Source of the DNA: Candidatus Competibacteraceae bacterium | GTDB lineage: Bacteria > Pseudomonadota > Gammaproteobacteria > Competibacterales > JAHEDQ01 | Reading direction: 5' to 3' | NCBI GenBank assembly: GCA_024641125.1 | Contig: JAHEDQ010000004.1 | Span: 1-54,217 of the forward strand | Length of the DNA: 54,217 bases | Shown: positions 1 to 40,850 of the stretch, piece by piece | Layout: each line of letters begins with the position of its first letter | Numbering within the stretch: position 1 is the first letter of the stretch | Program-made: the position numbers and the translations under genes | Notes under the pieces: generated by a model | Databases searched by the model: none | Told to the model about the DNA's origin: nothing | Seen by the model: only the letters and a program-made list of their open reading frames with translations

Positions 1-175
1 GCTGCAACGCCGCAGTGGCGTATCTGGGGCGCTCCCGACGGGCAAGGCGATAAGCGCCCATCCGCGGTGTTGGGCGCGCTTGAATGAGCGCAGGCTAGTC
101 CTGCGCCCGCCCGCCTAGCGCCTGGGCGCTTCTCGCCTTGCTGATATGCAACGAACTTATGGGACGGGACACTAG
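1..175. mobile_element. MITE-like structured repeat, family A copy 1 (left part probably outside the window)
   Basis: 41-171 closely matches 18774-18906. Internal inverted repeat GCAAGGCGATAAGCGCCCA / TGGGCGCTTCTCGCCTTGC; ends ...GGGACGGGACACTAG, overlapping the TAG stop of the adjacent gene. Confidence 0.75.
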
Positions 176-366
176 GTGTCCACCAGCGTAAACTCCGCCC
201 CGCAGTATGGACACTTGGCGTGCCCACCCTCCTCCAGCGAGAGATAGACCTTGGGATGAGAATTCCACAGGGTCATGCCGGGCATGGGACAGCTGAGGGG
301 CAGGTCAGCCCGGGAAACCGTGTACTGGTTCTCGGCGTTGGCCTGGACCGGTTCGATCTGCGCCAT
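172..366 (-). CDS. Small zinc-finger protein (zf-CHCC-like)
   Basis: C-P...W-N-S-H-P-K-V-Y-L...C-P-Y-C-G motif. ATG at 366 has GGAGG upstream. Lies downstream of ilvE. Confidence 0.85.
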   Translation of the reverse strand: MAQIEPVQANAENQYTVSRADLPLSCPMPGMTLWNSHPKVYLSLEEGGHAKCPYCGAEFTLVDT

Positions 367-401
367 GGATGCCGTGCCTCCTGGAAAGTGTTTGTGTATG
401 C

Positions 402-1325
402 TCAATCGACCAGAGTCAGCCACTCGGGATACGCGTCCCGACGGCCGTGTACCTGGTCGAAGTACATGCTCTGCAGGCGCTCCGTGATGGGGCCTCGCCC
501 GCCGTTGCCGATATCCCGCCCGTCCACCTGACGAATCGGCGTCACCTCCGCCGCGGTACCGGTGAAGAAGGCCTCGTCGGCGGTGTAGACCTCATCCCGC
601 GTGATGCGCTTTTCAGTAACCTTGACGCCGATATCCTGGCAGAACCGCATGATGGTATCGCGGGTGATGCCCTCCAGACAGGCGCTTAGGTCGGGCGTGC
701 TAATCACCCCGTCTCGGACAAGAAAAATGTTCTCGCCGCTGCCTTCGGCCACAAATCCCTGGGTGTCCAGCAGCAGTGCTTCGTCGTACCCGTTTCTCAG
801 CGCTTCCTGCAGGGCCAGCATGGAATTGATGTAATTGCCGTTCGCCTTGGCTTTGCACATGGCGGCGTTGACGTGGTGGCGGGAGAACGAGGAGGCATGC
901 ACCCGGATGCCGCGTTCGATATTCTCGGCGCCCAGGTAAGCACCCCATTCCCACGCCGCCACCATCAGATGTACGCTCAGGTTGTCCGCCCTGAGGCCCA
1001 TCCCTTCGGAACCGTAGAACGCCATGGGCCGGATATAGGCGCTTTCCAGTTCATTCTGGCGGACCGCGTCCCGGCACACCTGGTTGATTTGTTCACGGCC
1101 GTAGGGTAGCGCCATACCCATGATCTTGGCCGATCGCATCAGCCGGTCGGTATGGGCATCGAGCCGAAAAATCGCCGCGCCCCGATCTGTGCGGTAGGCG
1201 CGCACGCCCTCGAACACCCCCATGCCGTAGTGCAGCGTATGGGTCAGCAGGTGGGTCTTGGCTTCACGCCAGGGAATCATCTGGCCGTCCAGCCAGATCA
1301 GGCCATCGCGGTCATCGAACGTCAT
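402..1325 (-). CDS. ilvE: Branched-chain amino acid aminotransferase
   Basis: LHYGMGVFEGVRAY, AKANGNY, EGSGENIF, LEGITR and FFTGTAAEV class IV aminotransferase motifs. Confidence 0.97.
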   Translation of the reverse strand: MTFDDRDGLIWLDGQMIPWREAKTHLLTHTLHYGMGVFEGVRAYRTDRGAAIFRLDAHTDRLMRSAKIMGMALPYGREQINQVCRDAVRQNELESAYIRPMAFYGSEGMGLRADNLSVHLMVAAWEWGAYLGAENIERGIRVHASSFSRHHVNAAMCKAKANGNYINSMLALQEALRNGYDEALLLDTQGFVAEGSGENIFLVRDGVISTPDLSACLEGITRDTIMRFCQDIGVKVTEKRITRDEVYTADEAFFTGTAAEVTPIRQVDGRDIGNGGRGPITERLQSMYFDQVHGRRDAYPEWLTLVD

Positions 1326-4282
1326 TCCGGTGTCTCCTCAAGCACAATCTCTGCATCCGTCCCGGGGGCCATGAGTCGGGACCATATGTCGCACACCCCC
1401 AGTCGGGCCCTTTCCAGGGACTCGGTCACCTGATCCACGGGCAGCAGCGCCTCGTTTCCGCGCAGCTTACCCAGGTGGCCGAGATGCCTCAGCGCCCGGT
1501 AGGCATCCCGCAGCAGACCCGCGTCTTCCGGCGCCATCAGGCCGCAGGCCTCCAGCGCGTCGAGTTGGCGGATGTTGTCGCTCCAGACCAGGAGTTCCGG
1601 ATGGGCGTGAGCGCCCGCCAGAACCGCGTATTGCACCATAAATTCGATGTCCGCGATACCGCCCGGATCGTGCTTGAGATCGAAGAAACCCGGCTTTTTG
1701 GCGCCCAGTTCAACCCGCATGCGTTCGCGCATTTCCCGAACTTCGACCCGCAGCGCATCCGCATCCCTGGGCTGCGACAGAATCTCCCGCCGAAGTTGCT
1801 CAAATGCCGCGGCCATCTCCTGGGGTCCGGCCACCACCCGGGTCCTGACCAGGGCCTGATGCTCCCAGGTCCAGGCCTGACTGCGCTGGTACTCGGCGAA
1901 CGCTGCCAGACTGGTCACCAGCAGACCCGATCGACCGCTGGGCCGAAGCCGGGTGTCCACCTCATACAGCACCCCTGCCGCGGTCTGAGTGCCCAGCATA
2001 TGGATGATGCGCTGGGCCAGGCGGACGAAAAAGCTTGAATTGTCCAGGGCGCGCGGACCATCGCACTCCTGACGCTGTCCATGGCTATCGTGCAAAAAAA
2101 CCAGATCCAAGTCCGATCCATAACCCAACTCGATGCCGCCCAGCTTGCCGTAGGCGACAACCGCAAAATCAGCTCGAACCCGCCGCCCATCAATCTCATA
2201 CCAGGGCTCCCCGTGCTTGCGGATCAGATCGTTCCAGGCGATATCAACCACTTTTCTGATGACGGTCTCGGCAATCCAGGTCAGGCAGTCACTCACCACC
2301 ATCAGGCGCATACCGCCGCTGACGTCGGCGGCGGCCACCCTCAGCATATTGGTCTGCTGGAAATGGCGCAGCGCGTCCATCTGCTGCTCCAGATCGTCGC
2401 CCGGCGCCCGGGCCAGGAACACGTCCAGTTCCCGGGCCAGAGCTTCCGGCCGCAGGGGTTCATAGAGCGTCCCCGGGGTCAGCAGATCATCCAGCAGCAG
2501 CGGGTGTTTGCCCAGGTACTCGGCTATCCATGGGCTTGCCGCGCACAGACGGACCAGCTGCGACAGGGCCAACGGGTTCTCCACCAACAAGGCCATATAC
2601 ACACTGCGGCGGGCGACGCTCTGCACCAGATTGAGCACCCGTACCAGGGTCTCGTCCGGATGCTCCACGCCGGCCACCGCACCCAGCAGCAGCGGCATCA
2701 AGGCGTTTAGACGTTCACGCCCGTTCTTGGTCAGCGCACGGCAGGCATGTCCGACACGCAGACGCTGCAGCTGCCCCAGGGCTGCATCCGGGTCGCTGAA
2801 ACCGCTCGCCCGCAACTGCGCAATGGCGGTCGCATCGGCAGTTGCGCCGGTCCAGATTCCGACCCAGCCCAGCTCCGCGGCATCGCCCTCTTCGCTCTGG
2901 GGCGCGGCAAACACCTGCTGGAATTGCTGCTCGACCCGGCGCACATGGACCATCAGGGCGCGCACGTAGCCGCCCCAGTCGTCAAACCCCATGGTCATGG
3001 CGAGCCGGGCCTTGCCCGGGTCATCCACCGGCAGATCGTGCGTTTGCTGGTCCTTGTACGCCTGAATGCGGTTTTCGCTGCGACGCAGGAACCGATACGC
3101 CTGTTTGAGATGGGCCACGGCGTAGGCGGGCAGATTGTCGTCCGCCGCCAATTGATCCAACACGGTGACGATGCTGCGGCTTTGCAGGGCCGGGTAGCGC
3201 CCCCCGTAGATCAGCTGAAAAGCCTGGCCGATGAACTCGATCTCACGGATGCCGCCGGGACCCAGTTTGACGTTGCGCCGCAGCCCTTTACGCTCCACCT
3301 CACGGGCGATCAGCAGCTTCATCTCGCGCAGGGATTCAAAGGCGCCGTAGTCCAGATACCGCCGATAGACAAACGGCCGCAAGCGGCGCATGAGTTTTTC
3401 GGCCTCGGCCCGATCCCCCGCTATCGGGCGCGCCTTGATCATGGCATAGCGTTCCCACTCCCGGCCGTGGATCTGGTAATAGTGTTCCAGCGCGTCGAAA
3501 TGCATCACCAGCGGACCCGCCTCACCAAAGGGCCGCAACCGCATATCCACCCGAAACACGAACCCCCGGTCGGTGTTCTCACCCAGCACTTTGATCAGTT
3601 TCTGGCCCAGGCCCCGAAAAAACTCCTCGTTTGTGATCGGCCGGCGAGCGTCGGTTTCACCCTTGTCCGGATAGGCGAAAACAAGATCAATATCGGACGA
3701 GAAGTTGAGTTCCATTCCGCCCAGCTTGCCCATGCCGAGCACCACCATGGTTTGCGGCTGACCCTTGGCGCTGCGCGGCTGGCCACGGCGTTCCGCCTCC
3801 CAGGCGTGCAAACGCCGCAGCGCCGCGTCGACGCAGGCGTCGGCCAGCCAGGACAGTTCGCGCAGCGTCTCATCGAGATCGGCCGCCCCGACCAGATCGC
3901 GCCAAGCCACGCGCACCATCTCACGGTTGCGAATCCGCCGCAGCGCGACGGACAGTTCGGTAATGGATTCGGCGGCCTGGGCGGCGTCATCCGTCCGCTG
4001 GGACAAGGCGTCAGCCGGGTAACCGCGGTTCAGATCCCCGGACGCCAGCAGCTGCGCCAGCATGTCCGGATCCCGTATACAGCTGCGGGCGACGAAGTCA
4101 CTGCCGGCCCATACCCGGATCACCGCATCGGACAACACGTCGTCGGCACGGATCTGATCAGCCAATTCCGGTGCCGCCTGGACAAAGGCTTCCCAACGGT
4201 CCGCCGTGGCATCGACCAGCGGCTCCGGTAGACGGTTGCGGATGGTGGACAACATGGCCTCATCCATACGCCGCGCCCGCAT
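1322..4282 (-). CDS. glnE: Bifunctional glutamine synthetase adenylyltransferase / adenylyl-removing enzyme (start may be 4267)
   Basis: Two nucleotidyltransferase domains: MGKLGGMELNFSSDIDL...RVDMRLRP and YGKLGGIELGYGSDLDL...EVDTRLRP. Confidence 0.97.
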   Translation of the reverse strand: MRARRMDEAMLSTIRNRLPEPLVDATADRWEAFVQAAPELADQIRADDVLSDAVIRVWAGSDFVARSCIRDPDMLAQLLASGDLNRGYPADALSQRTDDAAQAAESITELSVALRRIRNREMVRVAWRDLVGAADLDETLRELSWLADACVDAALRRLHAWEAERRGQPRSAKGQPQTMVVLGMGKLGGMELNFSSDIDLVFAYPDKGETDARRPITNEEFFRGLGQKLIKVLGENTDRGFVFRVDMRLRPFGEAGPLVMHFDALEHYYQIHGREWERYAMIKARPIAGDRAEAEKLMRRLRPFVYRRYLDYGAFESLREMKLLIAREVERKGLRRNVKLGPGGIREIEFIGQAFQLIYGGRYPALQSRSIVTVLDQLAADDNLPAYAVAHLKQAYRFLRRSENRIQAYKDQQTHDLPVDDPGKARLAMTMGFDDWGGYVRALMVHVRRVEQQFQQVFAAPQSEEGDAAELGWVGIWTGATADATAIAQLRASGFSDPDAALGQLQRLRVGHACRALTKNGRERLNALMPLLLGAVAGVEHPDETLVRVLNLVQSVARRSVYMALLVENPLALSQLVRLCAASPWIAEYLGKHPLLLDDLLTPGTLYEPLRPEALARELDVFLARAPGDDLEQQMDALRHFQQTNMLRVAAADVSGGMRLMVVSDCLTWIAETVIRKVVDIAWNDLIRKHGEPWYEIDGRRVRADFAVVAYGKLGGIELGYGSDLDLVFLHDSHGQRQECDGPRALDNSSFFVRLAQRIIHMLGTQTAAGVLYEVDTRLRPSGRSGLLVTSLAAFAEYQRSQAWTWEHQALVRTRVVAGPQEMAAAFEQLRREILSQPRDADALRVEVREMRERMRVELGAKKPGFFDLKHDPGGIADIEFMVQYAVLAGAHAHPELLVWSDNIRQLDALEACGLMAPEDAGLLRDAYRALRHLGHLGKLRGNEALLPVDQVTESLERARLGVCDIWSRLMAPGTDAEIVLEETPE

Positions 4283-4400
4283 CAGGTGGGTTCAAACAGC
4301 CCCGCATGTGCCCGTCCCCCCGATCAAGTCCGAATCCCAACACGCCACACTCCACATAAGGTCGCCAGCCAGAATCGCTCAAGCAGTACTGGCGTTCTGG

Positions 4401-5405
4401 TCAGCAGATCCTGGGCAAAGGATCGTCTTCAAGCTCTTCCAGGAAACGCTCGCCGCCCAGGTCGGTTTCCAGAACGACGCCGGCGCCGGGTTCCATCACC
4501 CCAACACGGGCCGCACCGGCACCGCTCGGCAGTTGCCACCATCGGCTCAGGGCCACATCCGCCGCTTCCGGCGAGAGTACGGCAACGACACGGCCCTCGC
4601 AGGCCAGACTGTAAGCATCGTACCCCAGCATCTCGCACACCGAGCGCACCGGATCCCGGACCGGCACCTGATTTTCCCACAACCGCGCAGCCATGCCCGT
4701 TGCTCTGGCCAGCTCATGGGCGACCCCGGTGAGCCCGCCCCGGGTTGGATCGCGCATGAACCGCAACCCTGGCAAATCCAGCAGCGCGCGAGTCAGCGGA
4801 AGCACCGAGGCGTTGTCCGATTGAAGATCGCCTTTCAGGCCAAACTGCTCCCGGGCCAACATCACGGTGATGCCGTGATCACCAATCGGACCGCTGACCA
4901 GAATCGCGTCGCCGAGCTGAACCTGGGCCATGCCCAGAGTAAGGCCAGGCGGCTTCACACCGACCCCGGCGCTGATGAGATACAGGCCGCCACCCTGTCC
5001 ACGTGGCACCACCTTGGTGTCGCCCGCCACCACCCGAACCTCGGATGACCGGGCCGCGGCAGCCAGATCGGCCACGATTCGGTCCAGCTGCGCCAGCGGC
5101 AAGCCTTCCTCGATCAGGGCGCTGAGACTGAGATAGCGCGGCGTAGCGCCTGCCACCGCCAGATCGTTGACCGTGCCGTGCACCGCCAGCGAGCCAATGC
5201 TGCCGCCGGGAAACTCCAGGGGCTGGACGGTGAAACCATCGGTGGTGAAATAGGGCGTCCCGCCTTCGAGAGTCAGAGGCACCGCATCGGCATGGGTATC
5301 CATTTCCGGATTGGCCAGGTGGCGCTCGAACACCTGCTCGATGAGTTCGCGCATATAGCGGCCGCCATTGCCATGGGACAAGGCAATGCGCAGATCATCC
5401 GCCAT
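4401..5405 (-). CDS. hypE: Hydrogenase maturation carbamoyl dehydratase HypE
   Basis: SHGNGG, GTVNDLAV, GDTKVV, MRDPTRGG and C-terminal LPRIC. Confidence 0.96.
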   Translation of the reverse strand: MADDLRIALSHGNGGRYMRELIEQVFERHLANPEMDTHADAVPLTLEGGTPYFTTDGFTVQPLEFPGGSIGSLAVHGTVNDLAVAGATPRYLSLSALIEEGLPLAQLDRIVADLAAAARSSEVRVVAGDTKVVPRGQGGGLYLISAGVGVKPPGLTLGMAQVQLGDAILVSGPIGDHGITVMLAREQFGLKGDLQSDNASVLPLTRALLDLPGLRFMRDPTRGGLTGVAHELARATGMAARLWENQVPVRDPVRSVCEMLGYDAYSLACEGRVVAVLSPEAADVALSRWWQLPSGAGAARVGVMEPGAGVVLETDLGGERFLEELEDDPLPRIC

Positions 5406-7716
5406 GCCCACGCCTCTGCTGTCGCATCTTGTTGCCTTCCTCGACGGCGGCCCACTCCACCACCTGGCCAAAACTGAGCCCACCGTCGTTACAGGGCACG
5501 ATCCGATGTTGGCATACCGGAAACCCCTGCCCAACAAGAGCGCCCGTCAGTCGCTCGCACAATACGCTGTTCTGGAATACGCCGCCGGTCAGACCGACAG
5601 CATCGAAACGGTGAGTCTCAGCCAGCCTGCGTGTGACCTCGGCCGCCGCCGCCACCAGCGTGTCGTGAAACAGCCCGGAACGCTGTTCCGGTGCACGGCT
5701 GGCATCGCACAAGGGCCCCAGCAGGGGGCCCCAGTCGACACGCAAAACACCCTCGGCATCGGTGTCCATGGGCAACCGAATGGGGTCATCGGGCACACCC
5801 GCCATGGCCTCGAGTTGCATGGGTCCCTGCCCTTCGAAACTGGTCCGGTGCAGATCCAGGATCAGCGATGCGGCCGCATCGAACAAGCGCCCGGCAGCGG
5901 ATGTTTCCGGGCTTTGCAGGCCTCGCTCCCAGGCCGACCGGACCAACTCGGGGGACGCCACCGGGGCGGTCCAGGCACGACCGCTTGCCCAGCACAGGCC
6001 CGCGGCGGAGCGCCAGGGTTCGCGCCCAGCGGCGTCGCCCCCTGGGGGGCGAAACGGCCGAAAGCTGGCAACCCTTTGCCATCGTCCAGACGCCCCCAGA
6101 AACACCTCACCACCCCACAGGGTTCCGTCAGCGCCGTAGCCAACCCCATCCCAGGTAAAGATCAACCAGCGTTCTATCTCAGGGTGCTCCCCGGCCAGGG
6201 CCGAGGCATGGGCATGATGGTGGAACACCGGTGTGACAGGGCGGCCGTCGTGTTTCGCCCATTGGCTGCTGGCGTAGCGAGGATGGGCATCGCACACCAG
6301 GGCTTGTGCCTGTATCCCATACAGACGCTGAAGGTCATCCGCCACCTGGCGGAACACGCGCTCGGCCCGGGGCGAATCCAGGTCACCAATGTGGGGCGAG
6401 ACCACGACCCGATCTTCCCAGGCCAGGGCCAGCGTGCACTTCATGTGTCCGCCCACGGCCAGGGCCGGTCGGGGAACGGGTATCGGCAACCTGTGTTCCA
6501 GAGGCGCGTTTCCACGCCCCAGGCGGATGGGCCGCGTGCCGCACCCCGTGCTGCGGTACACCGGATCATCCGCCGGACGCTGTATCGGTCGATTGTGGTG
6601 TAAAAACGCATCCGCCACCCGGAACAACTGGTGCTCGGCGTGGACCGGATCGGTGATCACCGGCTCACCGCTGAGATTGCCGGAGGTGGCCACCAGCGCC
6701 CGGTCGCAGGCTGCCAGCAGCAGACAGTGCAAAGGGCTGTAAGGCAGCAACACACCCAGATCGTTCAAGCCCGGCGCAAGCTGATCGGACAATCCGTTAT
6801 CGGCCCTGCGGGGTGCGAGTACAATCGGGCGCATCGGGTCGGCGAGGCGGTCCCTGGCCGTCACATTCAGCCGGACCGCACACGCCACCGCCCCCAGGCC
6901 GTCCGATCCGCGCAGGGGAAACATGACCGCCAGCGGCTTGCGCGGGCGCTGCTTGCGGGTACGAAGCCGGATTACCGCCGCATCACTGGCGGCGTCGCAC
7001 ATCAGGTGATAACCACCGACACCCCGCACCGCCAGCACCTGACCGCGCAGCAGAACCCGAACCGCGGCTGCGAGGGCATCCTGGTCACCCTGGATTTCGG
7101 TCGATTTGTCCTTGAACCGCAGGCTGGGACCACACGCAGGGCAGGCCAAGGGCTGGGCATGAAAGCGACGGTCCAAGGGGTTTTCATATTCACGGCGACA
7201 GTCCGGACATAGAACAAAGTCCCGCAGGGTCGTGTTGGGTCGGTCGTAGGGCAGTGCGGTGATAATGGTGTAGCGGGGACCACACTGAGTGCAGTTGATA
7301 AACGGATAGGCGTAGCGGCGCTGTCCGGGGTCACGCAACTCCGCAAGGCAGTCTTCGCAGACAAACTGGTCGGGGGGAATGTGGATGTCGGGCTGCACAC
7401 CTTCGGCGCTGGCCAGAATACGGAACGCCGAGTACCCGGCCGGAGCGCAGTCGGTTTCCGAAATCACCTCCGGTCGGGCCAGTGGCGGAGCGCTATGAAT
7501 CAGGTCTCGCTTAAAATCGGCCAGGGCCGCGGCCGCGCCCTCCACTACCACGGTAACCTGGCCGGTGCTGTTCCGCACCCAACCGGTGAGGCCATAACGA
7601 GCCGCCAGGCGGTAGATGAACGGCCGGAAACCCACCCCCTGGACACGCCCGCCCAGGGTCAAACGACGGGCGTACACCCCGTACCCATCAGGCCTGTTTC
7701 CGGGCGCAGTGCTCAT
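5395..7716 (-). CDS. hypF: Carbamoyltransferase HypF
   Basis: Acylphosphatase domain GRVQGVGFRPF, CxxC-x18-CxxC zinc fingers, RRFHAQP, HHHAH, PCNDGGLSFGQ. Start placed at ATG 7716. Confidence 0.96.
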   Translation of the reverse strand: MSTAPGNRPDGYGVYARRLTLGGRVQGVGFRPFIYRLAARYGLTGWVRNSTGQVTVVVEGAAAALADFKRDLIHSAPPLARPEVISETDCAPAGYSAFRILASAEGVQPDIHIPPDQFVCEDCLAELRDPGQRRYAYPFINCTQCGPRYTIITALPYDRPNTTLRDFVLCPDCRREYENPLDRRFHAQPLACPACGPSLRFKDKSTEIQGDQDALAAAVRVLLRGQVLAVRGVGGYHLMCDAASDAAVIRLRTRKQRPRKPLAVMFPLRGSDGLGAVACAVRLNVTARDRLADPMRPIVLAPRRADNGLSDQLAPGLNDLGVLLPYSPLHCLLLAACDRALVATSGNLSGEPVITDPVHAEHQLFRVADAFLHHNRPIQRPADDPVYRSTGCGTRPIRLGRGNAPLEHRLPIPVPRPALAVGGHMKCTLALAWEDRVVVSPHIGDLDSPRAERVFRQVADDLQRLYGIQAQALVCDAHPRYASSQWAKHDGRPVTPVFHHHAHASALAGEHPEIERWLIFTWDGVGYGADGTLWGGEVFLGASGRWQRVASFRPFRPPGGDAAGREPWRSAAGLCWASGRAWTAPVASPELVRSAWERGLQSPETSAAGRLFDAAASLILDLHRTSFEGQGPMQLEAMAGVPDDPIRLPMDTDAEGVLRVDWGPLLGPLCDASRAPEQRSGLFHDTLVAAAAEVTRRLAETHRFDAVGLTGGVFQNSVLCERLTGALVGQGFPVCQHRIVPCNDGGLSFGQVVEWAAVEEGNKMRQQRRGHGG

Positions 7717-16512: not shown

Positions 16513-16550
16513 CCAATCTGCTTCGTCCAGAATAAATCAGAGGCTCCTGA
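16513..16550 (-). repeat. Solo end fragment of MITE family B
   Basis: Reverse complement TCAGGAGCCTCTGATTTATTCTGGACGAAGCAGATTGG matches the left end of 31987-32153 (TGAGGGGCCCGTGATCTATTCTGGACGAAACAGATTGG). Confidence 0.75.
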
Positions 16551-18773: not shown

Positions 18774-18906
18774 GGGCAAAGGCGATAAGCGCCCATCCGC
18801 GGTGTTGGGCGCGCTCGAATGAGCGCAGGACTGGCCTGCGCCCGCCCGTCTAACGCCTGGGCGCTCCTCGCCTTGCTGAGATGCAATGAACTCATGGAAC
18901 GGGACA
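18774..18906. mobile_element. MITE-like repeat family A copy 2
   Basis: Near-identical to 41-171 in the same orientation; lies between the fxsA stop and the groES promoters. Confidence 0.8.
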
Positions 18907-19808: not shown

Positions 19809-22106
19809 ATGAGCCGAATTTTGGTCGCGCTGATCTCGATGGCGCCGATGCTTGCGTCCGCCATAGACGAGTCGGAACTGCTGCCGCCGGAACAAGCCTT
19901 TCCGGCCACCGCTGCGGCGCTGGGGCCGGAGCGTATAGAGGCAAGCTGGGACATCGCCGAAGGATACTATCTCTATCAACACCGCCTGGCAGTCACCACG
20001 ACCACCGCGGGGATTGAGCTGGGTGAACCGGTTCTGCCGCCGGGTACGGAAAAAGAGGACGAATTCTTCGGCCGTGTGGTGACCTACCGCACACGGGTCA
20101 CCGCTGAAATCCCGGTCCTGAAGCGGCCTGCAGGGATAACCCCGGTGGTGCTGGATCTCGGGTCTCAGGGCTGTGCCGATGTTGGCGTCTGCTACCCGCC
20201 CATGTCGCAATCGACTGTGCTCGAACTGCCGTTGATGGCGCAAGCCAAACCCGCGCAAACCCTACCCGCGGCGGCCGTTCCGGCTGCCCCGGCCAGCCAG
20301 CGCCTGCAGAATCTCCTTGGCGGCGGCAGTAATAGCCTGGGTATCGCCGGCGACGATCTGCTGCCACCGGATGAGGCCTTCATGCCCACGGCCGAGTCCA
20401 CCGATGGCCGCAGCATCCGCATCAAATGGCGCATCGCCGACGGCTACTACCTCTACCGGGACAAGATCGGGCTGGCGTTAACCGAAGCCGACGGGGTCGA
20501 ACTGGGCACGGTGACCACGCCCGAGGGCGAGGAGAAAGAGGACGAGTTTTTCGGCCGCATACAGGTCTATTACGGGTCCGCGGAGGCCACTGCGCAGCTG
20601 CAACGAACGCAACCAGATGCCACCGAGGTGGTCCTCAAAGCGGAATACCAGGGCTGTGCGGACATAGGAGTCTGCTACCCGCCCATGGAACAAACCATCC
20701 CGGTGCTGCTGCGGGCTATTCCGGCGGCAGAGGCGGCGACAGAGGCGGCCCCGAACGGCACCGCGCCGGCCCAGGCGGCTACAACTGACCTGGATGCCCT
20801 GCTCGGATCCCCGCAACCGGTGGCGGAACAGGATCGACTGGCAGAGAGTCTGGCCCAGGGCGGGCTCCTGACGGTGGCAACCTTTTTCGGCCTTGGTCTG
20901 CTGCTGGCCTTCACCCCTTGCGTGTTCCCGATGATCCCAATTCTGTCCGGCATCATCGTGGGCCAGGGTAAGGACATCACCGTGCGGCGGGCTCTGCTGC
21001 TGTCGTTGATCTATGTGCTGGCTATGGCGCTCACCTACACGGTGGCCGGGATACTGGCCGGCTTGTTCGGGCAAAACCTGCAGGCTCTGTTCCAGCAAAC
21101 CTGGATCCTGGTGGTTTTCGCCATCGTGTTTGTGCTGTTGTCACTGTCCATGTTCGGATTCTACGAGCTGCAACTGCCGTCGACGCTGCAAACCCGGCTT
21201 GCCGCCATGAGCAATCGCCAGCAGGGCGGAAATTACCTGGGGGTGGCGATCATGGGCTTTCTGTCCGCCCTGATCGTCGGCCCCTGTGTGGCGCCACCTT
21301 TGGCCGGCGCTCTGATTTACATCGGACAGACCGGAGATGCGGTGCTGGGCGGTCTGGCTTTGTTCGCCCTAAGCATGGGAATGGGCGCGCCGTTGCTGGT
21401 GATCGGCGCATCGGCCGGCAAATTTCTGCCCCGTGCAGGCGCCTGGATGGATGCGATCAAGGCGGTGTTTGGGGTGGGACTGCTGGCGGTGGCCATCGTT
21501 CTGCTGGAGCGGGTTCTGCCAGCGGCTGTCTCGATGGTCCTCTGGGGGCTGCTGATGATCGGCTCGGCGGTTTACCTGCGGGCATTCGAGGCGGTCGAAG
21601 GCGGATGGTCACGTTTGTGGCGCGGCCTGGGCCTGGCACTGGCCGTTTACGGCGGGCTCATGTTGGTTGGTGCCGCTATGGGGGGTCGCGACACCTTGCA
21701 ACCCCTGCGCGGCGTGTTCGGCGGCGGCGCGGCCCATCAGGAGCTGACGTTCAAGAGGATTAAATCCAGTGCCGATCTGGACCGGGAAATTGCCGCCGCG
21801 GTGGCGGCCGGACGGCCGGTGATGGTGGATTTCTACGCCGACTGGTGCGTGTCCTGCAAGGAAATGGAGAAATACACATTCAGCGATCCGGCGGTGATCA
21901 CTGCGCTCTCGCCCGCGGTGCTGCTGCAGGCCGACGTGACCGCCAACGATGCCGAGGATCAGGCGTTACTCGCGCGCTTTGACCTGATCGGGCCGCCGAC
22001 CATCCTGTTCTTCGGGACGGATGGCGCCGAACGTCCCGGCTATCGCACCGTGGGCTTTGTCCCGGCGAACGAATTCCGTGAGCACGTTCAGGCCGCCATC
22101 CGGTGA
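19809..22106 (+). CDS. dsbD: Thiol:disulfide interchange protein DsbD with a duplicated N-terminal Ig-like domain
   Basis: Two GYYLY...QGCADxGVCYPP domains, TM domain FTPCVFPMIP / GPCVAPPL, thioredoxin domain DFYADWCVSCK. Confidence 0.95.
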   Translation: MSRILVALISMAPMLASAIDESELLPPEQAFPATAAALGPERIEASWDIAEGYYLYQHRLAVTTTTAGIELGEPVLPPGTEKEDEFFGRVVTYRTRVTAEIPVLKRPAGITPVVLDLGSQGCADVGVCYPPMSQSTVLELPLMAQAKPAQTLPAAAVPAAPASQRLQNLLGGGSNSLGIAGDDLLPPDEAFMPTAESTDGRSIRIKWRIADGYYLYRDKIGLALTEADGVELGTVTTPEGEEKEDEFFGRIQVYYGSAEATAQLQRTQPDATEVVLKAEYQGCADIGVCYPPMEQTIPVLLRAIPAAEAATEAAPNGTAPAQAATTDLDALLGSPQPVAEQDRLAESLAQGGLLTVATFFGLGLLLAFTPCVFPMIPILSGIIVGQGKDITVRRALLLSLIYVLAMALTYTVAGILAGLFGQNLQALFQQTWILVVFAIVFVLLSLSMFGFYELQLPSTLQTRLAAMSNRQQGGNYLGVAIMGFLSALIVGPCVAPPLAGALIYIGQTGDAVLGGLALFALSMGMGAPLLVIGASAGKFLPRAGAWMDAIKAVFGVGLLAVAIVLLERVLPAAVSMVLWGLLMIGSAVYLRAFEAVEGGWSRLWRGLGLALAVYGGLMLVGAAMGGRDTLQPLRGVFGGGAAHQELTFKRIKSSADLDREIAAAVAAGRPVMVDFYADWCVSCKEMEKYTFSDPAVITALSPAVLLQADVTANDAEDQALLARFDLIGPPTILFFGTDGAERPGYRTVGFVPANEFREHVQAAIR

Positions 22107-26186: not shown

Positions 26187-27179
26187 ATGCGCATCGGTCC
26201 CTACGAACTGACAAATAACGTCGCTCTCGCACCCATGGCCGGCGTGACCGACCGCCCGTTCCGACAACTCTGTCGGAGATTGGGGGCAGGGTTTGCCGTG
26301 TCCGAAATGGTCAGCGCCAACCCCAGCTTGCGGCACACCCGCAAAAGCCGGCAACGACTCGACCACGCGGGTGAGGACGCGCCCATTAGCGTGCAGATCG
26401 CCGGCGCCGATCCCCACATCCTGGCCGAAGCCGCCCGAATCAATGTGGCCCATGGCGCCCAGATCATAGACATCAACATGGGCTGTCCGGCAAAAAAAGT
26501 GTGTAACGTCCTGGCGGGATCGGCGTTGCTTCGCGATGAGACACTGGTGGGCCGCATTCTGGCGGCAGTGGTGGACGCGGTGGACGTGCCGGTCACGCTG
26601 AAAATGCGTACCGGCTGGGCCGCGGATCACCGCAACGGGGTTCGGATAGCGCGCATGGCCGAAGCGGCCGGCATCCAGGCTTTGGCGGTCCACGGGCGAA
26701 CCCGAACCGACGGATACGGCGGCCCGGTGGACTACGACACCATCGCTCGGGTGAAAAACGAGGTGACCATCCCGGTCTACGCCAACGGCGATATCGACTC
26801 GCCGGCCAAGGCGGAAAGGGTGATGGCTCTGACCGGCGCCGACGGCGTGATGATCGGGCGTGCGGCACAGGGTCGTCCCTGGCTGCCAGGTCAGATAGCG
26901 GACTATCTGCGCACCGGCCAGAGGCACTCTGAACCGGCTGTGGCGGCGGTCCGAGACCTGCTGCTGGGCCACCTTGAGGAATTGTATCGGTTCTACGGTG
27001 CACATCAGGGGGTGCGCATCGCACGCAAGCACATCAAATGGTACTGCGCCGCGCACCCGGAGAGCGCAGCTTTCTGGCGGAACGTGAGCAGAGTCGAGTG
27101 CACCCGCCAGCAGACCCGCCTCACGCGGCAGCATTTCGACCGGCTGGCCATTGATTCACCCACCGGTTTGGCTGCCTAG
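26187..27179 (+). CDS. dusB: tRNA-dihydrouridine synthase B
   Basis: LAPMAGVTDRPFR, DINMGCPAKKV, VHGRTR; precedes fis. Confidence 0.96.
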   Translation: MRIGPYELTNNVALAPMAGVTDRPFRQLCRRLGAGFAVSEMVSANPSLRHTRKSRQRLDHAGEDAPISVQIAGADPHILAEAARINVAHGAQIIDINMGCPAKKVCNVLAGSALLRDETLVGRILAAVVDAVDVPVTLKMRTGWAADHRNGVRIARMAEAAGIQALAVHGRTRTDGYGGPVDYDTIARVKNEVTIPVYANGDIDSPAKAERVMALTGADGVMIGRAAQGRPWLPGQIADYLRTGQRHSEPAVAAVRDLLLGHLEELYRFYGAHQGVRIARKHIKWYCAAHPESAAFWRNVSRVECTRQQTRLTRQHFDRLAIDSPTGLAA

Positions 27180-27448
27180 GGCCTGTTGACACTATGCGGA
27201 TACCCATCGACAGAGCCCCATTTTTTGCAGGACCAGGCGCAGTGAGCGCTGCGTACCCGCCGTACATGAGCGAACCTGAAACGCAGGCCTGTGGAAAATG
27301 GGGCCTGTCCCTGCGGGTTGTCCCTCAAATCAGGCCATGCAGCGTTGCACATCGCTTATTTGGAATAACCAAACTGCGTTCTACGCGCCTTGCTTGGCCT
27401 GATTTGAGGGACAACGCTGGGCGTCCGAATAATGTCAACAGGCCGTAG
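27177..27448. mobile_element. MITE family D (about 272 bp) between dusB and fis
   Basis: Terminal IRs TAGGGCCTGTTGACACTAT / ATAATGTCAACAGGCCGTA (17 of 19 match); internal 25-bp IR 27317-27341 / 27391-27415; no convincing ORF. Confidence 0.8.
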
Positions 27449-31307: not shown

Positions 31308-31989
31308 ATCCCACTTCCGGCGCACCCAGCGCGGATTCACCCTGACCGAGCTGATGGTGGCTCTCACCCTTGGACTCATCGTCAGCGCCGGCATAATCCA
31401 GATTGTGCTCTCGGCACGAGCAAGCCAGCGCATTCAGTACGCACTGACCGATCTGCAGGAAAGCGGGCGTGCCGCGGTTTCGCTGCTGGGGGAACGCATC
31501 CGGTTGGCCGGATATGACAATCCGGCGACGCTCAGAAAACCGGTTTCACCAGCCGTGCGGGGCGATGTTGGTCCGGATGCGATCCAAATCGCATTTGAAG
31601 GCGGGGACGATGTGGTGGACTGCCGGGGCCAAACAGTGGCTGAAGATACGGTGGTCACCGAGCGCTTCGAGGTGGTCGACGGGCAACTCCGGTGCAGCCT
31701 GCTGGACCAGCCGCTGGTGGATGGCATCAGCGATCTGCATATACTGTATGGGCTCGATACCGACTTTCCGCCGGATGGGCTGCCCAATCGATTTGTGGAC
31801 GCGGCCGGTGTGGGTGCGAACTGGGGGCAGGTGACGGGCGTGCGGCTGGCCGTGCTGGCGATCAGCAACGATGACGTGGGTCTGGACCCCGACACGCGGG
31901 CGCTGATGCTGCTCGATAACAGCATTGGGCCATTTGCTGACCGCAGATTGAGGGCAGTGTTCTCGACCACCGTACAATTGCGCAACTGA
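31294..31989 (+). CDS. pilW: Type IV minor pilin PilW
   Basis: RG|FTLTELMVAL, LQESGR, IRLAGY, LVDGISDLHILYGLD, FSTTVQLRN. Confidence 0.88.
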   Translation: MRCFESHFRRTQRGFTLTELMVALTLGLIVSAGIIQIVLSARASQRIQYALTDLQESGRAAVSLLGERIRLAGYDNPATLRKPVSPAVRGDVGPDAIQIAFEGGDDVVDCRGQTVAEDTVVTERFEVVDGQLRCSLLDQPLVDGISDLHILYGLDTDFPPDGLPNRFVDAAGVGANWGQVTGVRLAVLAISNDDVGLDPDTRALMLLDNSIGPFADRRLRAVFSTTVQLRN

Positions 31990-32153
31990 GGGGCCCGTGA
32001 TCTATTCTGGACGAAACAGATTGGAAGGTTAAAGGTGCAGCTTCAAGACGCAGATCGCGGGTAACAGTTGTTCTATTGCCAAGATTTTCAACGAGAAAGC
32101 TGTGTATTTCAGTCCCAAGATGCGCGTTCACCAGTAGGTCAGAGGCTCCCTGA
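31987..32153. mobile_element. MITE family B copy 1, between pilW and pilX
   Basis: Imperfect TIRs (GGGGCCCGTGATCTA / TAGGTCAGAGGCTCCC); body matches 40703-40850; left end matches 16513-16550. Confidence 0.75.
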
Positions 32154-33526: not shown

Positions 33527-33529
33527 CGA

Positions 33530-34901: not shown

Positions 34902-34952
34902 AAAAAAAACGGGTATCCGCCGTGACGACAGGCACAGCGCCGTCGCCACGGC
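34902..34952 (-). terminator. Possible terminator/attenuator between trxA and rho
   Basis: Minus-strand GC hairpin (34919-34952) followed after 9 nt by T8; the spacing is non-canonical. Confidence 0.35.
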
Positions 34953-34961
34953 ACGTGCGTA

Positions 34962-35288: not shown

Positions 35289-35484
35289 GGGAAATCTCTC
35301 CGTTCTCAGCCGACCGGCGCATGATTACGTCAGAGTGTTATGATTGCTTATGGGCAGGGCTGTCCGGAATCACTCTGCCTAAGGATCGCAACGGCGACCG
35401 GAGTTCCGGCTTAAAGAAGTACACAGCCCTAAGTTTGAGCCCAATCCACACTCTTTTTCAAGTCTCCTGCGAGAAATTCGCTTA

Positions 35485-36909
35485 ATGCCCAACCAGCACC
35501 TGACCAACACACGTTTCCGCTCCCTCGACTTATCCCCTGCCCTGGTGAAGGGATTGGATGATCTGGGATTCGACTATTGCACACCAATACAGGCCAAGAC
35601 TCTGCCACTGGCACTGGCAGGCAAAGACGTCGCCGGCCAGGCGCAGACCGGAACCGGCAAGACGGCCGCGTTCCTGCTTGCCACCATGCACCACCTGATG
35701 CGCCACACCGAGGCGCCACCGCCAGAGGCCGAGCACACGGATCCCCGGGCCATCATACTGGCGCCGACCCGCGAGCTCGCGATTCAGATCGAACGAGACG
35801 CCGAAGCGTTGGGCAAACACACCGGCCTGCGCACCGGCCTGGCTTATGGCGGCACCGGCTACGAGAGTCAGCGGCGGCGACTGGAAGAGGGTGTGGACAT
35901 TCTGATCGGAACGCCCGGACGGACCATCGACTACTTCAAACAGAAAGTGTTCAGCCTCAGACGAATCGAAGTGGTGGTGCTCGACGAAGCGGACCGCATG
36001 TTCGACCTCGGCTTCATCGCCGACCTGCGCTTTCTGTTGCGCCGAATGCCGCCGCCGGGACAACGGTTGAACCTGATGTTCTCTGCAACCCTCTCGTTTC
36101 GCGTCCACGAACTCGCCTATGAGCACATGAACTCGCCAGCGGAGGTTTCGATAGAGCCTGAGCAGGTAACCGCGGACCGGGTGGAGCAGGTGCTATATCA
36201 TGTGGCCATCAACGAGAAAATACCGTTGTTGCTGGGTCTGCTTAGGCAAGTGGACAAACAGCGCGTGCTGATATTCGTGAACACCAAACGGGTCGCTGAA
36301 ATTGTCGGCCGATACCTGGGCGGCAATGGCATGGAGGCCGCGGTTCTGTCGGGTGATATTCCGCAGAAGAAGCGGCAGCGTCTGCTGGAGCGATTTACTG
36401 CCGGCGAACTGACCGCGCTGGTGGCAACCGATGTGGCCGCGCGCGGATTACACATCCCCGATGTGGCCATGGTGGTGAACTTCGATCTGCCTCAGGACGC
36501 GGAGGACTATGTTCACCGCATTGGCCGAACGGCCAGAGCCGGGGCGGCGGGTCTGGCGGTCAGTCTGGCCTGTGAGGAGTATGTGTATTCGCTGCCGGAA
36601 ATCGAACAATACATCGGCCAACCCATACCAACGGCGCCAATCGAAGACGATTTTCTGGTGACTCCGTCACCACCTGAGCCACGACGCCCCAGCGAAAAAC
36701 CCGGCGGCCATGGCCGGAATCCCCGATCACGGCGCAGCGGCGGGCGGCGTGGCCAACCGCAGCGGAGCGACGACGCACAGTCACACACTGCTGCAGCCGG
36801 CGACGCAAATCCGGCGCCGGCGGCCGCCGACAGCGAGGCCGCACCCGCGCGCCCGAAACGCCGTCGTCGGCCGCGGCGCAAGTCCGAACCGAGTACGCCG
36901 GCCAAGTGA
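35485..36909 (+). CDS. rhlB: DEAD-box RNA helicase RhlB
   Basis: [29 protein letters not shown]; divergent from trxA. Confidence 0.93.
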
Positions 36910-36949
36910 CACATGAGAACCGCCGCGGCAGAACCGCCGAACTCGGTTG

Positions 36950-38497
36950 TCAGTGGTCTGCTGACCGAAAACGCAGTTTGTAGGCAGCTGCTTTGAGCAG
37001 GCCCGCCTCGGCCTCCAGATCGGCACGGGTGAGGGGGTGATCTTCCAGCCAGCCGGCCTCGAAAATCAGCGTAAGCGTGCGCTCCTGGCGCAGCAGCTCG
37101 GGGGTGGGCACGTTGACCTCGGTTCGGCCCCGATGGAGCAATACCGCCAGACGCAGGAGTATGCACAGATCAATCGCGGGCTGGCGGATTTCATCGGGCA
37201 GTTCCTCGAACGTGGATTGGGGGAATTTGCGCCGATGGCCGCGAATCAGCACCGAAAGCAGACGTTGCTCACCCCGCGCAAAACCGGCCAAATCGGCATG
37301 GCGCAGGAGATAGGCGCCGTGTTTGTGATACTGCGTATGTGAAACCGACAGGCCCAGTTCATGAAGATGGGCCGCCCAGTTGAGAAAGTTGCGGCATTCC
37401 TGATCCGTTGCAGCCCGGCAACTGCCGGCCTGATCGTAAAGGGCCAGGGCGGTACCGGACACCCTTTCGGCATGCTCGGTATCGATGACATATCGACGCT
37501 CGAGCGCCCAGACCGTGCGCTCGCGCACATCTTCATGGCGCAGGCGTCCGAGCAGGTCGTAGAGCAACCCTTCGCGCAACGCCCCGTCCGACACCTCGAG
37601 ATGCTCAATGCCCAGGGACTCGAACACCCCGTACAGAATGGCAAATCCACCCGGAAACACGGTGGCACGTTCCGGGCTGATTTCGAGCCGTTCGGACAAA
37701 GCTGCCACGCTGCCCGCTTCGATCATGGCTGCGCGCAGTCGTTTCAGGCTTTCGCGGGTGATCCCGTGTACACTCCAACCCGCGGCTTCCACCGCCTTGC
37801 GAATGGCCCGGATGGTGCCGGAAGCACCGGTGGCCACATCCCACTGCCCGGGCATGAATTCCCAGCGCACCGGTTCGAGTTCCAGGCGCGCCGCCACCTC
37901 GGCCCGCTGCATCTCCGCTTTGCTGATGACACCGTCGGCGAAAAACCTCTGGGTCATGGAAACACAGCCCATAAACAGGCTTTCCAGGCGCTGGGGTTCA
38001 AAATTCTCGCCGAGAATCAGCTCGGTACTGCCACCGCCGATGTCCATCACCAGCCGGCGTCCATCCGCAGCGATGGTGCTGTGCGCAACACCGAGATAAA
38101 TCAGCCGCGCCTCTTCCAAGCCGGATACCACTTCCACCGGGTGGCCCAGGGCGCGCTCTGCCTCCAGCAGAAATTCGCGCCCGTTGCGCGCGCGTCGCAG
38201 GGTGTTGGTACCGACCACGCGTACGTTTTCCGGTTGCAGGGATCGCAACCGCTGTCCGAACCGCTCAAGGCATGCAATGCCCCGGGTCCGGGAGTCGACC
38301 GTAAGTCGATTCCGATGGTCCAGGCCGGCGGCCAAACGCACCATCTCACGCAAGCGATCAAGGACTTGGAACTGATCGTCCACTTGACGCGCGACCATCA
38401 TATGAAAGCTGTTGGAGCCAAGATCGATGGCGGCAAAAAGATTGCTGTCGGAATGAACCGGCACGTCGGAGTTGGTCAAGGGAACGTCCGCGCTCAA
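36950..38497 (-). CDS. ppx: Exopolyphosphatase / pppGpp phosphohydrolase (Ppx/GppA)
   Basis: AAIDLGSNSFHM, DIGGGSTE, ALREG, HD-like C-terminal domain. Confidence 0.93.
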   Translation of the reverse strand: MSADVPLTNSDVPVHSDSNLFAAIDLGSNSFHMMVARQVDDQFQVLDRLREMVRLAAGLDHRNRLTVDSRTRGIACLERFGQRLRSLQPENVRVVGTNTLRRARNGREFLLEAERALGHPVEVVSGLEEARLIYLGVAHSTIAADGRRLVMDIGGGSTELILGENFEPQRLESLFMGCVSMTQRFFADGVISKAEMQRAEVAARLELEPVRWEFMPGQWDVATGASGTIRAIRKAVEAAGWSVHGITRESLKRLRAAMIEAGSVAALSERLEISPERATVFPGGFAILYGVFESLGIEHLEVSDGALREGLLYDLLGRLRHEDVRERTVWALERRYVIDTEHAERVSGTALALYDQAGSCRAATDQECRNFLNWAAHLHELGLSVSHTQYHKHGAYLLRHADLAGFARGEQRLLSVLIRGHRRKFPQSTFEELPDEIRQPAIDLCILLRLAVLLHRGRTEVNVPTPELLRQERTLTLIFEAGWLEDHPLTRADLEAEAGLLKAAAYKLRFRSADH

Positions 38498-39000
38498 TCC
38501 TTCAGATCGCGCAGCTGAGCCGGTGTCAACGCCCAGCGCATCATGCCGGTAGCGGGCTTGGGCTCGCCTTCGTACTCAAGCAGGCACACTCCGCCCTTCT
38601 TGAGCGCGATCACCCGCAACGGCCGACCGCATACCATATAGCCCGCCAGCCGGCCCAAATCCGGCTCGTGGCCCACCAACGCGATGGTATCCTCCGACCC
38701 AAAACGGTTCAGCCAGTCCAACACCGCCTGCGGATGCCCGCCCGGTTCCAACGCCGCGACCCGTTCGGATTTGGCCCGGCCGTAACTGCGGCCAAGCAAC
38801 GCGGCGGTCTCGCTGGCCCTGACCAGGCCACTGGTGCCGATGACATCCAATCGCTTGATCAGGCGTCGAAGGCGGCTCGCATTTTTTCGCATTCTGCGGC
38901 GCCCGGCGTCGGTCAAGGACCGTTTTGCGTCGTCAACTGTGGCGGACGAAACAGAATCGGGCACCTCGGCGACAGCATGGCGAATCAAGAGGATTTTCAT
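38494..39000 (-). CDS. sixA: Phosphohistidine phosphatase SixA family
   Basis: LLIRHA, RASETA, LVGHEPDL, LKKGG. Confidence 0.85.
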   Translation of the reverse strand: MKILLIRHAVAEVPDSVSSATVDDAKRSLTDAGRRRMRKNASRLRRLIKRLDVIGTSGLVRASETAALLGRSYGRAKSERVAALEPGGHPQAVLDWLNRFGSEDTIALVGHEPDLGRLAGYMVCGRPLRVIALKKGGVCLLEYEGEPKPATGMMRWALTPAQLRDLKD

Positions 39001-39037
39001 TGTGGTGACTCACCAACAGGCCTCAACGGAATGCGGG

Positions 39038-40396
39038 TCAGGCCTGTTTTGCGGTTTTGAACGCCGCCATCGTGGACGGATTCTGCCCAGCCAGTTGGCG
39101 ATCCGGAGTGATACCACGTTTGTCGTCGAAGCGACAGGTAAACACGCTGCCCTGACCGATTTGACTCTGGATTTCCAGTCGCGCGTCGTGGCGCAGCAGC
39201 ACGTGTTTGACAATAGCCAGACCCAGTCCGGTCCCTCCGGCCTCGCGGGAACGCGCCACATCCACCCGGTAGAAGCGCTCCGTCAGCCGCGACAGATGCT
39301 GAGCTGGAATCCCTTCACCGTTATCGGTTACAGACAAACAAAGACTGCGGTCTTGGTCCCGATACCAGTGAATGCCGATCCGCCCGCCGTCGGGAGTATA
39401 GCGGACCGCATTGAACACCAGGTTGGAGAAGGCACTGCGCAGCTCCCGCTCCTGGCCAAGCAGCCACTCGGATGCATCCGCAGAGAGGGTCACCTCATGA
39501 GCACGGGAACCGCTGAGTGAAAGCGCATCCTCCCGGATCACCGCCAGAATACCGTGTACTGGCACCGGTTCATCGGGCTGCCGCCGACCGCCTGATTCAA
39601 GCCGGGATAAGGTCAGCAGATCCTCGACCACGGTAAACATCCGGACGGCTTGCTGATTGATGTGTTGCAGCGGCCTCTGCCAGGGCGAATTCAGAAACTC
39701 CCCGCTGTCCAGCATGGACTCGGCATATCCGCTGAGCACCGTCAGGGGCGTTCGCAGCTCATGGGACATATTGGAGACGAAATCCCGACGGGTCCGCTCC
39801 AGGTTACGCAGGCGGGTTATGTCGGCGGACAGGAGCAAATCCTGGTCCTCGTCATAGTTCACCAACCGAAGGCTGAGCTGAACAGACTCGTTGACCGGCG
39901 ACGGGACTTCCACCGCCCCGTCGAACCGCCCGGCACGCAATAATGCAGTGAACTCGGGGTTACGCACCAAATTGCTGATGGGCCGATTGAGATCGCGCCG
40001 TCTCAGCCCCAGCATGCGCGCGGCGGCGCTGTTGTACCAAAGAATCCTTCGTTCCGGCCCCAGCGCCACCGCGCCGTCCGGTAGGGCCTCGGCCGCTTCC
40101 CGAAACCGCGACAAGAACTGGGCGAGGCGCCGCTTTCCCTGCCGGTTGCGCGACCTGAGATTGTAGAGGCTATCGTAAACCTGCGCCCAGATGCCGTAAG
40201 CTTTTGGGGGTCGATCGGTGCGGTGCGCCTTGAGCCATCGGTCCAGGCGATACAGACTCAGCAGATGCCAGCCAAGGCAGCCGCTAAGGGCCGCCACCAT
40301 GCACCAGGCGACCTCACCCAGAACGAGCCCCAGCACCAGGGAGACACCGAGAACGGTGACCAGTCTAAGGCCCACCCAAAGCCAGGCGGTGTTCAA
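39038..40396 (-). CDS. phoR: Phosphate regulon sensor kinase PhoR
   Basis: N-terminal TM, PAS, SHELRTPLTV, NLVFNAVRY, TERFYRVD, GTGLGLAIVKH. Confidence 0.95.
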   Translation of the reverse strand: MNTAWLWVGLRLVTVLGVSLVLGLVLGEVAWCMVAALSGCLGWHLLSLYRLDRWLKAHRTDRPPKAYGIWAQVYDSLYNLRSRNRQGKRRLAQFLSRFREAAEALPDGAVALGPERRILWYNSAAARMLGLRRRDLNRPISNLVRNPEFTALLRAGRFDGAVEVPSPVNESVQLSLRLVNYDEDQDLLLSADITRLRNLERTRRDFVSNMSHELRTPLTVLSGYAESMLDSGEFLNSPWQRPLQHINQQAVRMFTVVEDLLTLSRLESGGRRQPDEPVPVHGILAVIREDALSLSGSRAHEVTLSADASEWLLGQERELRSAFSNLVFNAVRYTPDGGRIGIHWYRDQDRSLCLSVTDNGEGIPAQHLSRLTERFYRVDVARSREAGGTGLGLAIVKHVLLRHDARLEIQSQIGQGSVFTCRFDDKRGITPDRQLAGQNPSTMAAFKTAKQA

Positions 40397-40413
40397 ACGA
40401 ACCCTTGATCCAG

Positions 40414-40698
40414 GAAAGGTCTGGTCAATTGCTGCGGGCGCGCCGACGCCTTTGCGCGCTCTCGTGCGAGTCGCACCGGGCGAAGTTGGCCCGAGGCATA
40501 TAAGCGAGTTGCCGATGAGCGAGGTGCAACGCGGTACCGAGGGCGCGAAAGCCCGATCCCGCTGGGGTTTTGCTCACAAGAGCGCATCTGCCGCGTTTCG
40601 CGGCTTGGCCATGGACTGACTGTGGCGCTGCGCCGGGAGCCTACCATCTGCGCCCATGCGGACCGAAGCGCGATTCGTATCAATTGATCAGACCTTAC
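40414..40698. mobile_element. MITE family C (285 bp, IS5-type ends) inserted into a family B element
   Basis: TIRs GAAAGGTCTGGTCAATTG / CAATTGATCAGACCTTAC flanked by CCAG and CTAG; same ends as 54122-54169. Confidence 0.8.
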
Positions 40699-40702
40699 CT
40701 AG

Positions 40703-40850
40703 TGTGGACGCATCAGGTGGGAGGGTAAAATGCGCAGGTTCAAGACGCAGATCGCGGATAGCAGTGGTTCTTTTGCCAAAATCTGCAACGATGCAACTGT
40801 GCATTTCAGTCCCAAGATGCAGGCTCACGAGTAAATCAGCGGCTCCCTGG
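40703..40850. mobile_element. MITE family B copy 2 (left-end remnant at 40398-40409)
   Basis: Matches 32005-32153 (CAAGACGCAGATCGCGG...TTTCAGTCCCAAGATGC...GGCTCCCTG). Confidence 0.8.

Follow-up and report, generated by a model that had tools for sequence, protein, structure and literature searches.

Why should short repeats with unrelated ends carry one and the same structured core? The question is raised by contig C235 (54,217 nt, hereafter the window) of a 4.76-Mb, 61.4% GC, 357-contig Pseudomonadota assembly assigned to a Candidatus Competibacteraceae bacterium. A first-pass annotation of this sequence had described four small-element families, A to D, with different termini and a common module in which CAAGGCG and CAACGC enclose a hairpin. 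The shared core is real and is wider than that annotation stated: it is a strand-specific fold, it recurs in many bacteria, and it is under selection in element lineages rather than in inserted copies. [quoted passage not shown]

The four families are genuine dispersed repeats. Iterated nhmmer searches gave 93 hits for family A, 223 for B, 72 for C and 29 for D, with 31, 177, 14 and 18 full-length copies, respectively, that have usable flanks; three additional families, E (89 hits), F (87) and G (26), also bear the module. At least seven dispersed MITE-like families, with about 620 hits in the genome, therefore carry one core. Families B, E and G are about 140-160 bp long and hold a single module (E, of about 157 bp, has many near-identical copies), while A, C, D and F are about 270-300 bp long and hold two modules in inverted order. 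The elements possess terminal inverted repeats, are free of transposase genes and occur in many dispersed copies, which is the usual test of a MITE. Whole-element profiles of families A-D produced just four overlapping cross-hits, and any common part must therefore be short. That part is seen both in the family consensus sequences and with a genome-wide regular expression, in which CAAGGCG and CAACGC bracket a hairpin in all of families A-G. Exact AAGGCG...CAACGC matches with pairing directly inside and outside occur 34 times in the genome, compared with 0-1 for six composition-matched decoy motifs, so that the conserved letters are indeed commoner than chance. A covariance model trained solely on modules from this genome (R1) places the module at 149 sites or more at E<=0.01, the best 150 of 2549 candidates having been scored. 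In a k-mer census, seven of the ten non-coding repeat families with at least five members have the module; it was not found by regular expressions in the remaining families, H, I and J.

On one strand, the core starts with the P1 stem, C-AAG and GCG, continues with a helix in which tandem G.A pairs abound and with a variable hairpin, and returns through CAA, CGC, any base and G to P1'. P1 is closed by a C-G pair, three unpaired bases (AAG) follow, and GCG and CGC form a constant 3-bp helix; in the interior G.A/A.G tandems alternate with G-C pairs below a variable, covarying hairpin, and CAA is bulged together with one free base. Aligned together, 20 copies from the window's genome, which represent eight module types, have invariant C-AAG-GCG and CAA-CG, a G after CGC-N, a 9-bp P1, the GCG:CGC helix and a 4-bp P2. 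In this alignment 85.0% of cells are paired, against 61.2% after shuffling and 28-40% when the partners are slid, and 12 of the 16 pairs have changed on both sides. A second alignment, of 57 cross-phylum sequences, gives very similar values (85.1% of cells paired, 61.5% shuffled, 23-39% slid); its terminal hairpin P3 is 95% paired with both-sided changes in six of six pairs, and the closing C-G pair, whose G lies outside the search pattern, is kept in 56 of the 57 sequences. The proposal that paired segments change together is thus borne out by both alignments. The inner positions show G.A at 20:58 in 39 of the 57 sequences and A.G at 21:57 in 38, with the remainder mostly Watson-Crick. Because these positions are mostly G.A or A.G, and otherwise mostly Watson-Crick, the inner 'loops' are a helix in which tandem G.A pairs are stacked and set apart by G-C pairs. 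Readings of the core as attC-like or as a kink-turn were dropped, since the order of the motifs seems not to fit the consensus features of those structures.

The fold also has a direction. With RNA parameters the strand that bears the motif folds better than the opposite one in 62 of 69 copies, and with DNA parameters it does so in 61 of 69; the stems contain 90 G.T against 30 A.C mispairs. One strand is the functional strand, since G.T exceeds A.C threefold and a plain double-stranded palindrome leaves this pattern unexplained. Together with the covarying stems and the conserved unpaired letters, this strand specificity sustains the suggestion of a selected RNA or single-stranded DNA fold. 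The same evidence bears on a reading without any function, in which the core would be the slowest-decaying remnant of one horizontally spread ancestral element, with palindrome-driven conversion keeping its stems paired. Families do share stretches outside the motif (an AATAG..CTATTGC hairpin in B and E, and CAAGGCGCGGTGAG in D and E), which point to common descent, and inserted copies do decay neutrally, as described below. However, the unpaired letters are fixed across phyla while ends and arms have diverged beyond recognition, and neither the 90:30 ratio nor the occurrence of G.A rather than C.T mismatches is expected from conversion of a double-stranded palindrome. We therefore regard a functionless remnant as improbable.

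Within families the pattern is different. G.T and A.C are about equally frequent among the copies of a family (539 and 558 in B, 222 and 195 in E, 146 and 155 in D, 43 and 47 in G), and in tandem gene contexts the module lies sense in 70 cases and antisense in 71 (B 53/51, E 9/9, F 5/5, G 3/6). Few copies fall within predicted genes (14 of 195 in B). Inserted copies decay neutrally, and selection acts on element lineages and not on host loci; this follows from the near equality of G.T and A.C within families and from the absence of an orientation bias, which imply that copies are not maintained after insertion and that the core is kept by selection among the lineages themselves.

These counts weigh directly on the proposal that the module is a mobile cis-regulatory device of the host, which they do not support. 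In its fullest form that proposal would have a transcribed fold bind a protein, direct RNase cleavage or alter termination, with copies kept for gene regulation. A strand-specific fold with purine-rich non-canonical pairs would suit such a role, as would the double-module families, which, as had been noted, present the fold on both strands and hence in either direction of transcription. There are precedents too: according to a 2024 review (PMC10969869), ERIC exposes a site for RNase E in Yersinia, and RNase III cleaves the transcripts of Correia elements. Against it stand the balanced orientations and the symmetrical loss of pairing in inserted copies. A comparison with Rfam 15 gave no match at gathering scores in the window, and the elements had none either at E<=10 or E<=1, so that no family described there matches, which also speaks against an RNA module of the host. 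On balance, we judge regulation of host genes unlikely to be what maintains the core. One search for transcripts gave no RNA evidence: the metatranscriptome contigs that it returned have a small matching share, are less than 95% alike and cover just the right end of family C and the right half of family B. Separately, a weak match to the Rfam Gut-1 RNA (31.6 bits; gathering score 50) adjoins a module copy at L077:214-291 in a 'Scatosoma' bin.

The arms that surround the core are as regular as their sequences are varied. From the element end to CAAGGCG the distance is 52-54 nt in families B, C, D and E; on the right side, B and E have arms of 54-55 nt, and family G has 35-36-nt arms around a core of 70 nt. 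Of 60 cross-phylum copies whose flanks are long enough, 11 show clean terminal repeats next to TA (0 in a shuffled control); in 10 of these 11 the arms measure 51-55 and 52-60 nt, and the end sequences are unrelated. The module does ride on elements with different ends, as had been claimed, and the constant arms of 52-55 nt across end types favor a shared architecture, perhaps an old one whose ends were swapped or have diverged, over the capture of the module by one transposon end after another.

Judged by likeness, the ends appear to represent at least two transposase types, IS5-like in B and C and IS630-like in A and ERIC. A described element with ends of the first type is MITEPsy1 of Pseudomonas syringae, a 100-nt element that was trapped experimentally, makes a 4-nt duplication at CTAG/YTAA and is assigned to IS5 with ISPsy2 as its parent (PMC3189936); its terminal repeat opens with 11 nt (GGAAGGTCTGA) that are identical to those of family C and close to those of family B, a likeness that comes from the ends alone. 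Flanks of the elements read CTAG or YTAR, and for B, D, E and F these are equally compatible with a TA and with a 4-bp duplication. A comparison with a sister genome yielded no empty site: one E copy is present in both genomes and the second site lacks synteny. Around old copies of B, C and A throughout the genome the CTAG flanks often read CCAG, CTGG, CAAG or TTAG, which are single transitions.

Constant arms with unrelated sequences could also be understood if the core were a single-stranded DNA signal, recognized by a Y1/HUH-type or other structure-specific enzyme that acts at a fixed distance, with the terminal repeats merely forming a stem. The fold is about equally favored with DNA parameters, and Y1_Tnp genes are found in all five heavy carriers compared with six of 14 control genomes; in the same five genomes, which are too few to weigh and include three incomplete bins, DDE_3 occurs in two, DDE_Tnp_1 in four and DDE_Tnp_4 in two. 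The Y1_Tnp count is, however, post hoc and concerns a common family, and the sole Y1_Tnp gene in the window's genome has no module nearby. Furthermore, family-specific terminal repeats with TA/CTAG flanks mark DDE transposons, and the B and C ends match those of MITEPsy1, mobile by experiment with 4-nt duplications. We consider such a signal very unlikely. REP/REPIN sequences with their RAYT transposases, which are thought to act as single-stranded DNA, resemble the present elements: they are dispersed, strand-specific hairpin repeats that keep an unpaired tag while their stems covary. In contrast to them, the present elements have terminal inverted repeats that are long, are flanked by TA/CTAG and lack the GTAG/CGTC tag, and a Y1 gene flanked by the repeats is absent from the window's genome.

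Comparison with described repeats gives the core a wider setting. The first-pass annotation had suggested that the ERIC consensus contains the motif, and this was correct. Printed in Table 1a of PMC2759123 is a 127-nt RU-1/ERIC unit of E. coli; once reverse-complemented, it runs P1-CAAGGCG-...-CAACGC-P1' and has the same inner helix rich in purines; on the E. coli K-12 chromosome five of 57 exact pattern matches are ERIC copies, with CAAGGCG...CAACGC around the G.A helix. With filters off, R1 scores these five copies at 23.2 to 9.2 bits. ERIC (also IRU or RU-1) is like families C and D in being a TA-flanked imperfect palindrome whose center runs from P1-CAAGGCG through the tandem G.A helix and hairpin to CAACGC-P1', and by eye one of its termini (TACCCGTC...) looks like those of families A and F. 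It differs in its dimensions, with 127 bp, 24-26-nt arms and a 72-nt core as against the 52-55-nt arms and 51-70-nt core seen here. Families A-G thus share the ERIC core, but not the end-to-end alignment over about 127 bp that would make them ERIC in the strict sense, their elements being 141-285 bp long; nor does the window's genome belong to the Enterobacteriaceae and Vibrionaceae, to which the 2024 review confines ERIC (PMC10969869). ERIC is listed as MITEEc1 of the IS630 family (PMC11602168).

The Correia elements of Neisseria (NEMIS or CREE) were retrieved by means of a 28-nt repeat given in PMC5039591. Their sequence runs ...CAGGA-CAAGGCG...CAACGC-CGTACCGG..., and their shortest form retains just CAAGGCG-AGG-CAACGCC. 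R1, which was trained without them, matches 14 of 17 Correia loci, and a Neisseria-like genome (G211) contains 96 pattern matches. Like the families described here, they are TA-flanked MITEs, with CAAGGCG directly after the left repeat and CAACGCC before the right; their arms are shorter, at about 23 nt, and their interior, which is said to contain an IHF site (PMC3184786), is different. In the literature that we searched, including the available portions of PMC2229807, PMC2267715 and PMC9778887, the ERIC center is nowhere tied to Correia or to other phyla; the original ERIC and Correia papers fell outside this search and may hold an earlier remark. Literature queries by sequence strings returned nothing relevant.

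The core is spread far beyond these two cases. R1 finds matches in each of the four remaining genomes of the window's GTDB family (at least 121, 27, 3 and 10) as well as in one of 36 genomes of the sister family; the host lineage forms a small order of its own, with that one sister family, in the GTDB class that also includes the Neisseria-like genome. A scan of 185,579 species genomes, in which the window's own genome was left out, gave at least 120 matches to the pattern CAAGGCG-N4-GAG-N18-48-CGA-N4-CAACGC. From the 80 loci listed, 83 matches were parsed; 71 of these have a length of 48-52 nt, whereas by chance the lengths would range over 45-75 nt. About 15 phylum names appear among the matches listed, the titles of which include Acidobacteriota (many Vicinamibacterales), Gemmatimonadota, Nitrospirales, Planctomycetota, Elusimicrobia, Myxococcales, Desulfobacteraceae, Verrucomicrobiales, Actinomycetota including Streptomyces, Saccharibacteria, Oscillospiraceae, Cloacimonadota, Fibrobacteria, Bdellovibrio and many Pseudomonadota. 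Where two copies come from the same genome, they delimit the entire element, of about 150-175 bp, whose terminal repeats are specific to the family and are flanked by TA/CTAG. Among 401 evenly sampled Pseudomonadota genomes, one of them unpublished (G423, a non-carrier with one match, on which no conclusion depends), CAAGGCG-N33-41-CAACGC-N-G has at least 10 exact matches in 30 genomes, the window's own among them, and the reversed control has at most 5. The 2.0-Mb genome of another member of the Pseudomonadota (G225) contains 339 exact matches against 0 in the control; a profile search of this genome found no DDE_3 and one DDE_Tnp_1 hit.

Taken together, these observations favor a role for the core in cis in the propagation of the elements over a role in host regulation. 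The MITE group would insert at TA or CTAG sites, and the folded core would act in cis to help short elements propagate, whichever transposase cuts their ends. It may work as a single-stranded DNA or RNA structure that is read by a factor common to most bacteria, and copies that lose it would stop multiplying and then decay. We offer this account of how the core works tentatively, at a little under even odds.

Several results weigh against the MITE-group reading and against the proposed role of the core. A search for long pairs of identical ends revealed no autonomous element with the same ends in this assembly; an IS630-like element on contig C318, the end of which resembles that of family A, is free of the core, and so are three IS630-like copies from the Neisseria-like genome. 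R1 applied to the whole K-12 chromosome with strict filters finds nothing at E<=1, and a cross-phylum covariance model (R2) gives only 12.6-14.9 bits on ERIC. The letters CAAGGCG, GAG, CGA and CAACGC were imposed on the 57-sequence alignment by the search pattern, and their invariance there is not independent evidence. The carriers are mostly metagenome bins with possibly wrong taxonomy, along with several complete chromosomes and isolates, and the orientation test used crude gene calls made for this analysis, with 87% coverage.

The C318 element (L005, G000:C318:3662-7063, at about 1372-2441) has its DDE_3 transposase split into two frames, of 65 and 251 amino acids, and directly adjoins a family F element at a common CTAG. 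Family F is itself a mosaic: in the copy at L005:1100-1370, for example, the right half is an inverted, degenerate A-type module (TAGGCG...CAACAC), which suggests recombination between families. Family H, free of the module, is about 260 bp long with the terminal repeat CCTGCAAATTGCA; it is represented by G000 contig C354:27530-27795 and 16 further copies, and its flanks (TTAG/TTAG, CTAG/CTAG) fit a 4-bp duplication.

In the window itself, the letters quoted in the first-pass annotation are present at all nine of its module coordinates. When scored with R1, filters off, five of these copies are strong matches, one is marginal and two, the A twin and the minus-strand C copy, are unsupported; the ninth is a truncated tail. 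The family A element (1..175, minus strand) is cut by the contig start and ends at CTAG 172-175. The CAACGC at 5-10 lies in its left-module tail (1-10, plus strand) and, as full-length A copies elsewhere in the genome make clear, is the 3' end of the second (left) module. The right module (57-128, minus strand), a degenerate TAGGCG...CAACAC, is the marginal case, with 14.4 bits (E 0.099) in R1 and 15.6 bits in R2. A partial, decayed A copy at 18774..18906 (minus strand) is 91% like window 44-171, and its module (18792-18885) is not significant at 9.4 bits (E 2.4).

The family D element (27176..27448) is bounded by terminal inverted repeats at 27176-27209 and 27415-27448. It has two inverted modules, a CCAGGCG...AAACGC variant at 27223..27294 (plus strand; R1 35.6 bits, R2 39.0 bits) and a CAAGGCG...CAACGC module at 27332..27402 (minus strand; R1 71.6 bits for a copy that is in the R1 training set, R2 60.4 bits), the latter being the window copy nearest to the cross-phylum consensus. 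The family C element (40431..40690, plus strand) has a 66-nt module at 40457-40543 (plus strand) that scores 28.4 bits in R1 and 21.2 bits in R2; for the minus-strand module claimed at 40593-40644 there is no R1 match up to E 10, and it is too degenerate for scoring.

Two family B elements complete the set, both on the plus strand: B1 (31989..32152; module 32034-32104, R1 45.1 bits) and B2 (40699..40849; module 40731-40801, R1 53.1 bits). At 40731-40835 on the plus strand, and in family B generally, a Shine-Dalgarno-like GGGAGGG and a start codon precede a 34-codon frame that crosses the module. That family B might be a small gene was rejected, since only 72 of 177 copies keep an intact frame, variability at the three codon positions is 0.173, 0.172 and 0.211 with no clear coding signature, and an antisense frame is open about equally often. 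A 36-nt stretch at 16513-16548, 86% complementary to the left end of B1 (31989-32024), is probably a solo family B terminus. At 54113..54178 lies a minimal family-C-type element in which two terminal repeats stand back to back without a core, with TTAA on each side, representing either a core-less minimal element or an internal deletion. A 39-nt direct repeat (20166-20204 and 20649-20687, 87% identical, spaced by 483 nt) falls within a long open frame.

To our knowledge, ERIC and Correia have been used and studied for more than 30 years with no known reason for their conserved centers. The present analysis shows that these centers are the same structure, which recurs with compensatory changes in MITEs of many phyla, and that it is preserved through selection acting on the elements themselves; this makes an old puzzle into a testable question. 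Annotators gain a compact signature by which to recognize a large class of intergenic repeats absent from Rfam, and such repeats break assemblies, of which the 357 contigs here are an example. A further and rather doubtful step would be to see the core as a strand-specific, portable structure that, as RNA or single-stranded DNA, is recognized by one putative factor present in most bacteria, with which any short transposon carrying it could multiply. If this were true, ERIC, Correia and hundreds of MITE families without names, from some 15 phyla, would constitute one functional class, defined by its core and not by its transposases.

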